This document shows positions 9,105 through 12,560 of a DNA stretch of 42,657 bases, piece by piece. Position numbers and translations under genes: made by a program. This stretch comes from Escherichia phage Flotzy, in sequence record PP925827.1; one strand, 5' to 3'. The notes under the pieces were generated by a model, which saw nothing but the letters and a program-made list of their open reading frames with translations, was not told where the DNA came from and searched no databases. Every line of letters starts with the position of its first letter. The stretch's first letter is position 1.

Positions 9105-10600
9105 GTTTTTTAGATGATGCGATAGGCCTGTTTTCACCAGGCTGGAAAGCCTCACGCCTGCGTGCCCGCGCAGTTATTAAGGCGTATGAGGCGGTAAAGC
9201 AAACGCGTACCCACAAAGCCCAGAAGGAAAATCGTTCAGCCGATCAGCTCAGCCAGATGGGGGCGGTTTCACTGAGGCAGCAGGCGCGCTGGCTGGACAA
9301 CAACCACGATCTGGTGATTGGCGTTTTCGACAAGCTGGAAGAAAGGGTGGTGGGTGCGAAGGGCATCATAGTTGAACCGCATCCGATGCTGACTAACGGG
9401 AAGATAGCTAAAAAGCTGGCCACTGATATCCGCAGAAAGTGGGGCGAATGGTCCGTAAGACCCGATGTTACAACCCAGTTTACCCGCCCCATGCTGGAGC
9501 GGCTGATGCTGCGAACGTGGCTCCGGGACGGTGAGGTATTTGCTCAGCTGGTTCGCGGTACCGGAAATGGTCTTCAGCCGGTTGCTGGCGTGCCGTTCTG
9601 GCTGGAAGCGCTGGAGCCGGACTTCGTGCCGATGAACAGCGATGCCGCCACCCAGCTCAATCAGGGCATTTTTGTCGATAACTGGGGGCGCCCGAAAAAA
9701 TATCAGGTCTATAAAAGCCTGCCAGTATCCGGGCGTCAGTTCGATACCAAAGAGATAGATGCAGAAAACATGCTTCATCTCAAATTCACACGACGCCTGC
9801 ACCAGACCCGCGGAACGTCTCTATTGTCAGGTGTTCTGATGCGTCTGAGCGCGCTGAAAGAGTACGAGGACTCGGAGCTTACCGCTGCCAGAATTGCTGC
9901 CGCACTCGGCATGTATATCAAAAAAGGCGACGGACAGAGCTTCGAGTCTGATTCCAGCAGCGATGACCGCGAGCTGATGATTCAGCCCGGTATGCTCTAT
10001 GACGAGCTGCAGGCCGGGGAAGAAATCGGGATGATTAAATCCGATCGCCCGAACCCTAACCTCGAGTCGTTTCGTAACGGACAGCTGCGTGCCGTGTCCG
10101 CCGGCAGTCGCCTCAGCTTTTCCAGCACATCCAGAAACTACAACGGAACGTACAGTGCCCAGCGGCAGGAGCTTGTCGAGTCAACCGACGGTTATCTGAT
10201 TCTTCAGGACTGGTTCATCGGTTCAGTGACCCGGCCCATGTACCGGGCCTGGCTGAAGATGGCTATTGCTGCCGGAGAAATCAAGCTGCCGAGAGGCATC
10301 GATATGGACTCGCTTTATAACGCGGTTTATTCGGGGCCCGTTATGCCGTGGATTGATCCCGTTAAAGAAGCGAATGCCTGGAAAACGCAGATCCGCGGCG
10401 GTGCTGCTACTGAATCCGACTGGATACGTGCCAGCGGTCGCAACCCGGATGATGTTAAGTCACGCCGTAAAGCGGAGGTTGACGAGAACCGTGAACAGGG
10501 CCTGGTGTTTGACACCGACCCCGCCAATGATAAAGGAGGCACCAGTGCCGAAGCCAAAGAACCGGGCGCGCCACCGTCCGAAAGCCAGCGCAAAAAGTAA
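9101..10600 (+). CDS. portal protein (lambda gpB-like)
   Basis: 499 aa ORF following W-like gene, lambda-family portal position and size. Confidence 0.8.
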   Translation: MSFLDDAIGLFSPGWKASRLRARAVIKAYEAVKQTRTHKAQKENRSADQLSQMGAVSLRQQARWLDNNHDLVIGVFDKLEERVVGAKGIIVEPHPMLTNGKIAKKLATDIRRKWGEWSVRPDVTTQFTRPMLERLMLRTWLRDGEVFAQLVRGTGNGLQPVAGVPFWLEALEPDFVPMNSDAATQLNQGIFVDNWGRPKKYQVYKSLPVSGRQFDTKEIDAENMLHLKFTRRLHQTRGTSLLSGVLMRLSALKEYEDSELTAARIAAALGMYIKKGDGQSFESDSSSDDRELMIQPGMLYDELQAGEEIGMIKSDRPNPNLESFRNGQLRAVSAGSRLSFSSTSRNYNGTYSAQRQELVESTDGYLILQDWFIGSVTRPMYRAWLKMAIAAGEIKLPRGIDMDSLYNAVYSGPVMPWIDPVKEANAWKTQIRGGAATESDWIRASGRNPDDVKSRRKAEVDENREQGLVFDTDPANDKGGTSAEAKEPGAPPSESQRKK

Positions 10601-12560
10601 TTCGTGGTTCCGCATGCAGGCCAGCAATAACAGCGAGGCCGACATTTTTATCTATGACGAAATCGGGTACTGGGGCGTAACGGCGAAACAGTTCGTCAAT
10701 GATCTCCGGGCACTTGGGGACGTCACCCACATCAACCTTTATATCAACTCGCCCGGTGGTGATGTCTTCGACGGTATTGCTATTTATAACGCGCTGAAGC
10801 ACCACGGCGCGGCGATTACCGTGCATATCGACGGTCTCGCGGCCTCCATGGCCTCGGTGATTGCGATGGTAGGCAATCCGGTCATCATGCCTGAAAACAC
10901 GATGATGATGATCCATAAGCCCTGGGGGTTTGCTGGTGGTGACGCGAGCGATATGCGCGACTATGCGGATCTTCTCGACAAAGTTGAATCCGTTCTTATC
11001 CCGGCTTATGCGCAGAAAACCGGAAAATCCACCGAAGAAATTGCGGCAATGCTGGAGGACGAAACCTGGATGAACGGCAGCGAGTGCCTTGAACTGGGTT
11101 TTGCCGACCAGGTGACACCATCCCTTCAGGCTATGGCCTGTATTCATTCAAAACGTATTGAGGAATTTGAAAAAATGCCAAAAAGCATTCGCAACATGAT
11201 CACCCCGCCGCGCAACACTACCCAGCGTGACCCGGTTATTACCCAGCCTCAGGCACCGCAGGCAAAAACAGACCCGGCGCCGGATGAAAATGTGATCCGC
11301 GCGCAGGTGTTGGCTGAGCAGAAAGCCCGAGTTAACGCTATCGGCGATCTCTTTGCCATGTTCGGCAATAAGCACATGGAACTGCAGAATCAGTGTGTGG
11401 CCGACCCTGATTGTTCCGTCGATAAGGCAAAAGATTTGCTGCTGGCAGAACTCGGTAAAACGGCCACGCCGTCCAATAAAACCACCCAGCCGCATATTCA
11501 TGCGGGCAATGGTAACTTCGTCGCGGATGGTATTCGCCAGGCACTGATGGCGCGTGCCGGGTTCGAAGGTCAGGAGCGGGATAACGTTTATAACGGTATG
11601 ACGCTGCGCGAGTATGCGCGTATGGCCCTGACTGAAAAAGGTATCGGCGTGGCCAGCTACAACCCGATGCAGATGGTTGGCCTGGCGCTGACCCACAGCA
11701 CCTCTGACTTTGGCAACATTCTGCTTGATGTTGCGAACAAAGCGCTGATTCAGGGCTGGGACGAGGCGCAGGAAACCTTCGAACAGTGGACCAAAAAAGG
11801 CCAGCTGTCGGACTTCAAAACGGCGCATCGTGTCGGCATGGGTGGTTTCCCTTCTCTGCGACAGGTTCGCGAAGGGGCTGAGTACAAGTACATCACTACC
11901 AGTGACAAAGGCGAAACCATCGCGCTTGCCACGTATGGTGAAATCTTCTCAGTAACCCGTCAGGCGATCATCAACGACGATCTGAACCAGCTTACCGACG
12001 TACCGATGAAGATGGGGCGCGCGGCGAAAGCAACGATTGGCGATCTGGTTTACGCCATTCTGACCAAAAACCCGAAACTCTCAGACGGAAAGGCGCTGTT
12101 CCATGCCGATCACAAGAACCTGAGCTCGGGCGCAATTTCTGTGGCCAGCCTGGACGAATCGCGCAAGCTGATGCGTCTGCAGAAGGAGGGGGAGCGAACC
12201 CTGAATATCCGTCCGGCCTACATGCTGGTGCCCGTCGCCCTGGAAACTCTGGCAAATCAGACCATCAAGTCGGCCAGTGTTAAAGGTGCAGACATCAATG
12301 CCGGGATCGTTAACCCTATCCAGAACTTTGCAGAAGTCATTGCCGAACCACGCCTGGATGAAGCTGATGCGAAAGCCTGGTATCTGGCTGCCGCGAAGGG
12401 CACCGACACCATCGAGGTCGCTTATCTCAACGGCGTCGACACGCCATACATCGATCAGCAGGAAGGCTTCACCACTGATGGTATCGCCACGAAAGTGCGT
12501 ATTGATGCCGGTGTGGCGCCGCTGGACTATCGCGGCATGACCAAATCCTCTGGTCAGTAA
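10545..12560 (+). CDS. prohead protease (ClpP/S14-like) fused in one ORF to major capsid protein (Mu gpT / HK97-fold like)
   Basis: N-terminal ClpP-like region (YINSPGGDV, GLAASMAS, MIHKP), then a continuous frame into a capsid-like C-terminal ~300 aa; start GTG 10545 (AGGAGG RBS) or ATG 10614. Confidence 0.7.
   Translation: MPKPKNRARHRPKASAKSNSWFRMQASNNSEADIFIYDEIGYWGVTAKQFVNDLRALGDVTHINLYINSPGGDVFDGIAIYNALKHHGAAITVHIDGLAASMASVIAMVGNPVIMPENTMMMIHKPWGFAGGDASDMRDYADLLDKVESVLIPAYAQKTGKSTEEIAAMLEDETWMNGSECLELGFADQVTPSLQAMACIHSKRIEEFEKMPKSIRNMITPPRNTTQRDPVITQPQAPQAKTDPAPDENVIRAQVLAEQKARVNAIGDLFAMFGNKHMELQNQCVADPDCSVDKAKDLLLAELGKTATPSNKTTQPHIHAGNGNFVADGIRQALMARAGFEGQERDNVYNGMTLREYARMALTEKGIGVASYNPMQMVGLALTHSTSDFGNILLDVANKALIQGWDEAQETFEQWTKKGQLSDFKTAHRVGMGGFPSLRQVREGAEYKYITTSDKGETIALATYGEIFSVTRQAIINDDLNQLTDVPMKMGRAAKATIGDLVYAILTKNPKLSDGKALFHADHKNLSSGAISVASLDESRKLMRLQKEGERTLNIRPAYMLVPVALETLANQTIKSASVKGADINAGIVNPIQNFAEVIAEPRLDEADAKAWYLAAAKGTDTIEVAYLNGVDTPYIDQQEGFTTDGIATKVRIDAGVAPLDYRGMTKSSGQ

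Follow-up and report, generated by a model that had tools for sequence, protein, structure and literature searches.

A conserved candidate internal start in the protease-capsid fusion gene of Escherichia phage Flotzy and its Gifsy-2-type relatives

Directly behind the portal gene of Escherichia phage Flotzy (sequence record PP925827.1) lies a single open reading frame (ORF), at positions 10545-12560, which begins as a ClpP-like prohead protease and ends as a major capsid protein. How many proteins are made from such a gene? For the 42,657 nucleotides (nt) of this phage that were analysed, hereafter the window, the original prediction had offered two answers as an either/or: the capsid is made as a self-processing protease-scaffold-capsid polyprotein, or the frame contains an internal translation start. 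A third answer would be that the fusion is an error. The ORF listing and translation gave one open frame of 671 codons on the plus strand with no internal stop, and the Pfam domains, the NCBIfam model NF045540 and the uninterrupted translation bear out that a ClpP-like N-terminus and a capsid C-terminus share it. Such fusions are already known, curated and common, and the fusion contributes nothing new by itself. The sole element that may be new is a conserved internal Shine-Dalgarno (SD) motif with an ATG, for which the support is comparative. The parts of the gene, with lengths in amino acids (aa), are as follows:

10545..12560, plus strand: full-length ORF, protease - scaffold-like region - major capsid protein (671 aa, 73.2 kDa, GTG start)
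10532..10539, plus strand: Shine-Dalgarno sequence AAAGGAGG, 5 nt upstream of GTG 10545 and within the 3' end of the portal gene
10599..11117, plus strand: ClpP-like (peptidase S14) prohead protease domain, residues 19-191 (Pfam CLP_protease PF00574, 2e-40)
11160..11177, plus strand: candidate internal start, with GAGGA at 11160-11164, a 10-nt A-rich spacer and ATG at 11175-11177 (Met211)
11175..12560, plus strand: predicted nested ORF, scaffold-like region and capsid without the protease (461 aa, 50.1 kDa; a putative product)
11175..11624, plus strand: central scaffold-like part (residues 211-360), first a linker rich in Pro and Gln, then conserved segments predicted to be helical
11625..12548, plus strand: major capsid protein domain, residues 361-668 (Phage_capsid_4 PF25209, 7e-60), Mu gpT-like and of the HK97 lineage

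The Met211 ATG sits in frame at the boundary between the protease and the scaffold-like region. Met211 and the AGGA upstream of it were present in all 77 unique homologues of the window clade (58-100% identity), and the Met211 column was the only internal column of the alignment in which every sequence combined a start codon with an SD-like motif. At codon 206 these homologues had GAG in 76 cases, CAG in one and GAA in none; all other conserved Glu columns mixed GAA and GAG. Synonymous diversity across codons ~197-220 fell to an observed/expected ratio of 0.45-0.5, the second-strongest trough after the portal overlap. The predicted folding energy of the 63 nt around ATG 11175 was -4.8 kcal/mol, the mean for the gene being -15.2 (standard deviation 4.3), which places the region within the least-structured 0.7% of codon positions, and the local GC content was 38% compared with 55% gene-wide. 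The same arrangement was found in a second clade, that of a 29%-identical, high-GC fused homologue of 724 aa (L090) with 53 unique fused members: 52 of these had a junction ATG 6-7 nt downstream of AGGA or GGAG. In that clade the motif codons encode QE, KE, KD, KG, LE or PE and the surrounding linker is hypervariable. Fusions that carry an HK97-type protease have a junction SD and ATG too, leaving 457-505 residues.

From these comparisons we lean, if only slightly, towards the view that the internal start at ATG 11175 is used. Gifsy-2-type fusions would then be nested pairs, a reading that we hold to be a little on the probable side, in which a 50-kDa scaffold-capsid protein is the main building block and a 73-kDa protease-carrying protein the minority form; with the same slender preference, the claim would take in both the ClpP-type and the HK97-type protease fusions. 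Three other in-frame starts, at Met115, Met137 and Met176, were considered and set aside: all lie inside the ClpP fold, the SD-like motif accompanies them in ~80% or fewer of the sequences, and no synonymous constraint surrounds them. An antisense ORF at 11148-11828 was likewise rejected as the cause of the constraint, since it spans codons 202-428 and the constraint is limited to ~197-220.

Several points weigh against the use of this start. The internal SD of the window clade is modest, at -6.2 kcal/mol, and its distance of 10 nt from the ATG is beyond the optimum. The GAGGA doubles as codons for a conserved Glu-Glu/Asp pair, and the conservation of Met211 itself could have reasons at the protein level. 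Two other Met columns within the protease domain have an SD-like motif in ~80% of the sequences. The homologues are related by descent, so the conservation counts are not independent, and the conservation of nucleotides at a module junction could reflect recombination between modules. The AlphaFold2 (AF2) model of the 671-aa protein, made from an alignment of 29 sequences that were 81-94% identical, was unusable (mean pLDDT 42, pTM 0.26), so that the HK97 fold and the domain borders rest on sequence profiles. Lastly, the head proteins of phage mEp213 are described as unstudied (PMC12315714).

If these points were given their full weight, the 671-aa protein would be the only product: every subunit would bring a protease and a scaffold, both removed by self-cleavage, and the internal SD and ATG would be left over from an ancestor with two genes or would merely follow from residues that are conserved. 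We regard this account as possible, though somewhat doubtful. A relic would decay, yet the SD and ATG stand in ~100% of the sequences of three lineages that share only ~29% identity, and the L090 clade retains them while the encoded residues and the linker change freely. The synonymous constraint and the unstructured, AU-rich context are signals at the nucleotide level that the protein does not explain. Initiation at 10545 is nevertheless favoured by the single ORF and by its strong upstream SD, whose anti-SD pairing (-11.6 kcal/mol) is by far the best among the in-frame starts. A nested coding sequence is annotated in none of the records examined, those of mEp043, PGAP and Gifsy-2 included, and the accessible literature handles the gene as one propeptide; mention of an internal start was not found in the literature searched, the Gifsy-2 paper being outside its reach. 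A rough estimate based on general capsid dimensions also suggests that 415 copies of the ~40-kDa N-terminal part would fit inside a T=7 shell. The internal start that the original prediction had proposed gains comparative support, and the either/or probably falls: a self-processing precursor and an internal start are probably both true.

The recombination argument can be put more sharply, namely that the conserved nucleotides at ~11130-11200 are a recombination 'linker', or some other nucleic-acid element, between exchangeable modules. The module boundary is real, since the same scaffold-capsid module stands behind ClpP-like and HK97-like proteases, and the match of the NCBIfam model NF045541 to the window protein does not begin until residue 222. 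Distant clades, however, keep a purine-rich AGGA or GGAG at a fixed spacing from the ATG, and not a shared sequence of greater length; the site is the least-structured part of the mRNA, and an Rfam search of 10400-13000 returned zero matches. We consider a linker element improbable.

That the two halves belong to one gene is hardly in doubt. An artefactual fusion, in which an error of sequencing or assembly merged a protease gene with a scaffold-capsid gene by losing a stop codon or shifting the frame, might be suspected from the existence of relatives in which the parts are separate: Paenibacillus phage Rani has separate ClpP-like protease and capsid genes, Dulem virus 34 has a separate scaffold-capsid gene, and roughly 1700 phage records match the protease part only. 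The comparative data already refute it, and as an explanation we give it practically no credence. The frame is intact in 34 independent complete E. coli genomes, in 8 phage records from different groups, in 88 of 88 window-clade loci that were read and among 5185 proteins of a large protein database found at E<=1e-10, the top 120 of which cover 87-100% of the query. It stays open in homologues down to 58% and 29% identity. Alignment against fused and unfused homologues gave the same picture: fused relatives keep the frame, and unfused ones match one part only.

The curated model NF045540, 'ClpP-like prohead protease/major capsid protein fusion protein', covers the whole fusion, with residues 32-670 aligned to positions 2-652 of its 652 and a score of 995.9 bits against a cut-off of 475; the window protein is a typical member of that family and differs from it in nothing. 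PHROG 133 matched across the entire protein length. Of 5426 complete E. coli genomes, 32 hold the intact gene at a nucleotide identity of 95% or more and two others match at 60-80%, and RefSeq/PGAP gives the E. coli copies the same product name as the model. Nucleotide identity was 99.3-99.5% to mEp043, mEp213 and Eeyore and 98.6% to LLS; at the protein level, identity to the annotated genes of mEp043, mEp213 and LLS was 99.6%. A tblastn search of phage genomes gave 79 records in which a single match spans at least 80% of the protein, among them Stx-converting phages, cdtI, mEp460, Fels-1, Gifsy-2 (61.8% aa identity, with 98% of the length aligned) and, at 58% identity, the Pseudomonas F10 group. 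IMG/VR returned more than 600 matches, and among the 80 kept, 79 span residues 1-3 to 671. The gene is very probably the head-shell gene of a lambdoid phage that is essentially identical to mEp043 and mEp213, and a member of the Gifsy-2-type fusion family.

Related genes have been described before. In Pseudomonas phage MD8, gp5 has been interpreted as a single gene that combines protease, scaffold and capsid protein (PMC8508860), and ClpP-gpT fusions of ~700 aa occur in one third of the siphoviral prophages of Paracoccus (PMC6536676). MD8 gp5 and F10 gp5, from lambdoid Pseudomonas phages, are like the window gene in being single protease-scaffold-capsid genes, of 693 aa (PMC8508860). F10 gp5 shares 58% identity with the window protein, and its junction retains AGGAG and ATG; F10 differs in that a single, stronger terminator hairpin follows the gene where the window has two hairpins.

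At the N-terminus, the protease part matched NF045542 at 228 bits against a cut-off of 120. Alignment to the ClpP structures 6hwm and 1y7o placed the following residues:

10845-10847, plus strand: predicted catalytic Ser101, in GLAASMA
10914-10916, plus strand: predicted catalytic His124, in MIHKPWG
11061-11063, plus strand: Glu173, at the position of the ClpP Asp

All three are invariant among homologues down to 58% identity. A cellular ClpP was rejected: the domain scored 72.6 bits with TIGR00493, whose cut-off is 308.6, the remaining ClpP models were far under their cut-offs, and the Asp is replaced by Glu. With equivalog scores so far below the cut-offs, the domain is, by profile comparison, a phage head-maturation protease with a ClpP fold and not cellular ClpP. 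An S49 (SppA-like) protease was also rejected, TIGR00706 reaching only 21.6 bits against a cut-off of 155 and the best matches being ClpP/S14.

Beyond residue ~195 the protein continues with a conserved peptide, AMACIHSKRIEEFEKMPKSIRNMI, and then a hypervariable Pro/Gln-rich linker. After the linker come conserved segments, IRAQVLAEQKARVNAI... and CVADPDCSVDKAKDLLLAELG, which AF2 draws as helical, and a second short linker joins them to the capsid domain; homologues have a conserved A.E..R...I motif and a variable linker in this region. On the strength of the Gifsy-2 and MD8 literature we presume that the central region is a scaffold analogous to the HK97 delta domain. The capsid domain has a weaker match to Mu gpT (PF10124, 2e-9). 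As a single sequence, the capsid part matched the Protein Data Bank (PDB) weakly (8rkx, 2.7e-4); a profile of 18 diverse homologues, taken from the junction Met to the C-terminus, found 8rkx/8rkc 'Mu GpT domain-containing protein' at 2.6e-11 and the major capsid protein 9jod at 2e-5. Calculated masses are 23.1 kDa for residues 1-210, 16.5 kDa for 211-360 and 33.6 kDa for 361-671.

The part of the protein downstream of Met211 also exists elsewhere. Dulem virus 34 has a free-standing 513-aa scaffold and capsid gene behind a non-ClpP protein, and the nested 461-aa ORF aligns with it end to end, with equivalent start positions, which speaks for the internal start. Unfused ClpP-like proteases match residues ~10-280 only. 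NF045541, a sister model for fusions with another protease, matches residues 222-671 only, at 428 bits; since this is below its cut-off of 525, the protease part is of the ClpP kind and not of the other. In the IMG/VR loci L159, L162 and L164-L169, an HK97-type protease (VSVGY-type motif) was fused ahead of the same scaffold-capsid module. Because ClpP-like and HK97-type fusions both exist, the module has been joined to two unrelated protease families; judged by these alignments, the scaffold-capsid part is an independent module.

The 5' end of the gene is placed at GTG 10545, whose coordinates agree with the coding sequence in the mEp043 GenBank record. PGAP starts the identical gene at ATG 10527, 6 codons upstream of the GTG, and ATG 10614 is a further alternative. 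The first codons of the frame are shared with the gene upstream of it:

9101..10600, plus strand: lambda-family portal gene, directly upstream of the fusion ORF and overlapping it by 56 nt in a different frame

Within the fusion ORF, synonymous diversity is lowest at codons 1-22 (observed/expected 0.13-0.3), which fits dual coding with the portal gene together with a translation start.

How such a gene might work is suggested by comparison with known systems, of which Gifsy-2 (STM1033 / STM1034.3n) is the closest in organisation. There too the order is ClpP-like protease, a central region of ~150-200 residues and capsid domain; the neighbours are a lambda-type terminase, a small adaptor, a portal and a decoration gene of ~108 aa; and two intergenic hairpins and a junction SD and ATG are present. 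The differences are that Gifsy-2 is a Salmonella phage and the window phage of the E. coli mEp043/mEp213 type, and that linker length and sequence differ. Work on Gifsy-2 by Effantin et al. in 2010 is said to have described a 'tripartite capsid gene' with a ClpP-like N-terminus, a central region of ~200 residues with a possible scaffolding role and the capsid protein at the C-terminus. It reportedly found T=7 capsids, for which HK97 gp5 and lambda gpD were used in the modelling, and a precursor that is cleaved so that virions retain only the C-terminal capsid part; a self-processing polyprotein is accordingly said to be the model published for this 62%-identical gene. Gifsy-2 is listed as T=7, and is one of six phages that yielded no HK97-fold capsid protein in an automated survey.

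The arrangement proposed here would resemble lambda C/Nu3, Mu I/Z and herpesvirus UL26/UL26.5, in which a long product with the protease and a shorter in-frame one have the C-terminal assembly part in common, so that the protease is supplied sub-stoichiometrically. The window gene is also like lambda C/Nu3 in its head-operon position after the portal gene. It differs in that lambda gpC is an S49 (SppA-type) protease whereas the protease here is ClpP/S14, and in that the lambda capsid protein gpE has a separate gene whereas here the capsid protein lies within the shared C-terminal part. HK97 gp5 is similar in having a scaffold built into the N-terminus of an HK97-lineage capsid protein and removed by the prohead protease; in HK97, however, the protease gp4 has a separate gene and belongs to family S78, whereas here it is fused and ClpP-like. 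The HK97 shell has covalent cross-links and lacks a decoration protein, whereas here a DUF2190 cement gene adjoins, as in lambda and Gifsy-2.

By analogy with Gifsy-2, HK97 and lambda, we infer the following assembly pathway. Late, Q-dependent transcription would run across the head genes, as gene order and a Q-like gene suggest. Translation from GTG 10545 would give a 73-kDa protease-scaffold-capsid precursor, made up of an N-terminal ClpP-fold serine protease of ~190 residues, a built-in scaffold of ~150 and an HK97-lineage capsid of ~310. Initiation at ATG 11175 would probably add a 50-kDa scaffold-capsid protein without the protease, so that only a fraction of the subunits would carry the enzyme, as in the lambda, Mu and herpesvirus pairs. 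On the portal, both precursors would come together by way of their capsid domains and build a T=7 procapsid that encloses the N-terminal parts, as the likeness to Gifsy-2 and HK97 suggests. The Ser101/His124 protease would then cut off everything up to a putative cleavage site at about residue 315-360, leaving a mature protein of an expected ~34-38 kDa, and the shell would expand during DNA packaging and be cemented by DUF2190 trimers, as proposed from Gifsy-2 and lambda gpD.

Between the fusion ORF and the decoration gene lie 82 nt, in which two hairpins precede the signals for translation of the next gene:

12583..12601, plus strand: weak intrinsic-terminator-like element GCCC-GTAA-GGGC followed by a T7 run, with a 4-bp stem (hairpin 1)
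12613..12630, plus strand: second, stronger hairpin CAGCCCC-GCAA-GGGGCTG, with a 7-bp GC stem, 3 nt before GGAG (hairpin 2)
12634-12637, plus strand: decoration-gene Shine-Dalgarno GGAG, upstream of ATG 12643
12643-12969, plus strand: head decoration (cement) gene, DUF2190/Phage_cement_2, directly downstream of the fusion ORF

The original prediction had noted a weak hairpin and T-run after the gene and suggested that it could tune read-through into the head-completion genes. The element itself exists. Its stem and T-run (GCCC-N4-GGGC-T7) stay the same across 33 diverse relatives, although the ~25 nt ahead of them are not alignable and the loop varies; the records of mEp043 and mEp460 annotate it as a 'rho-independent terminator'. 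A consensus terminator scan with a stem threshold of 5 bp did not report it, the stem being of 4 bp. The window also encodes a Q-like antiterminator (991-1695, strand not given), and the Q proteins of lambdoid phages make late transcription read through terminators. A role in tuning read-through is doubtful because this antiterminator should render late transcription terminator-resistant, and strong termination is unlikely because, in addition, the operon goes on to include essential tail genes. That hairpin 1 works as a partial terminator, so that the head-completion and tail genes are transcribed less than the capsid gene, is possible but strikes us as rather unlikely. Another role is conceivable for the hairpins: they could make the 3' end of a processed capsid mRNA more stable or affect how the decoration gene is translated, the latter being possible because hairpin 2 ends 3 nt before the SD of that gene.

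Hairpin 2 is conserved as a structure. Three of its pairs show compensatory changes, and the fold is kept across E. coli, Klebsiella and Salmonella relatives; Gifsy-2 and Fels-1 have the same structure with an entirely different sequence. It might stabilise the mRNA or control translation. An attenuator-like alternative pairing of both hairpins was rejected, since the second hairpins of Gifsy-2 and Fels-1, unrelated in sequence, are unable to form it.

The rest of the head module conforms to the lambdoid plan. Upstream of the portal, and before that upstream of the head genes, the annotation gives:

6290-6790, strand not given: TerS
6790-8892, strand not given: TerL
~8889-9104, strand not given: W-like head-tail adaptor, between TerL and portal
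1-990, strand not given: HNH-endonuclease-like ORF, inside which the window begins
2029-3057, strand not given: DNA methyltransferase
about 2996-4448, strand not given: holin, endolysin and spanin genes
4562-5329, strand not given: Ser/Thr-kinase-like ORF
5326-6066, strand not given: ORF without an assigned function

Downstream of the decoration gene follow a small PF13856 gene and then homologues of lambda Z, U, V, G, T and H. Among the head-module genes, Pfam, PHROGs and the mEp043 annotation gave no second capsid or scaffold gene; that no separate gene of this kind lies between the portal and the small head proteins, as originally predicted, agrees with the gene order. The small gene (window 12995-13237, within ORF 12899-13237) matches Pfam PF13856 'Gifsy-2', described as a prophage ATP-binding sugar transporter; RefSeq calls it 'DNA breaking-rejoining protein' and PHROGs 'minor tail protein', and these public names look unreliable. 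It is more likely a head-tail joining protein, because it stands between the decoration and gpZ-like genes.

Other records of this gene cluster have irregularities of their own. In the E. coli O157 Sakai Stx1 prophage VT1-Sakai (AP000400.1, 23248-26576) the homologous fusion gene is interrupted by IS629, and the record of Pseudomonas phage PAN70 (KJ959591.1, 4393-6404) notes a disrupted reading frame; these copies are inactivated or mis-sequenced. The record of Eeyore (PP925821.1, 29191-29760) lacks the decoration gene and has an antisense ORF annotated there instead. Two genes of an E. coli prophage, portal and gpT, are flagged by PGAP as partial pseudogenes (NZ_CP067311.1, 258200-259723 and 264601-264864), which probably reflects the modelling of start sites and of the G-T frameshift and not real decay. 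The fusion gene itself goes under various public names: 'head maturation protease', 'Clp protease ClpP', 'protease/scaffold protein', 'terminase protein' and 'head-tail preconnector Nu3'. Such inconsistent names hide its identity as the major capsid gene, as the survey result for Gifsy-2 illustrates, and the practical value of recognising the fusion lies in annotation.

If the nested start is indeed used, it would explain how the ratio of protease to capsid protein is controlled in these phages, and it would alter the interpretation of the precursor bands seen in Gifsy-2-type procapsids. It would also extend the strategy of C/Nu3, Mu I/Z and UL26/UL26.5 to a case in which the capsid protein itself is the shared part.

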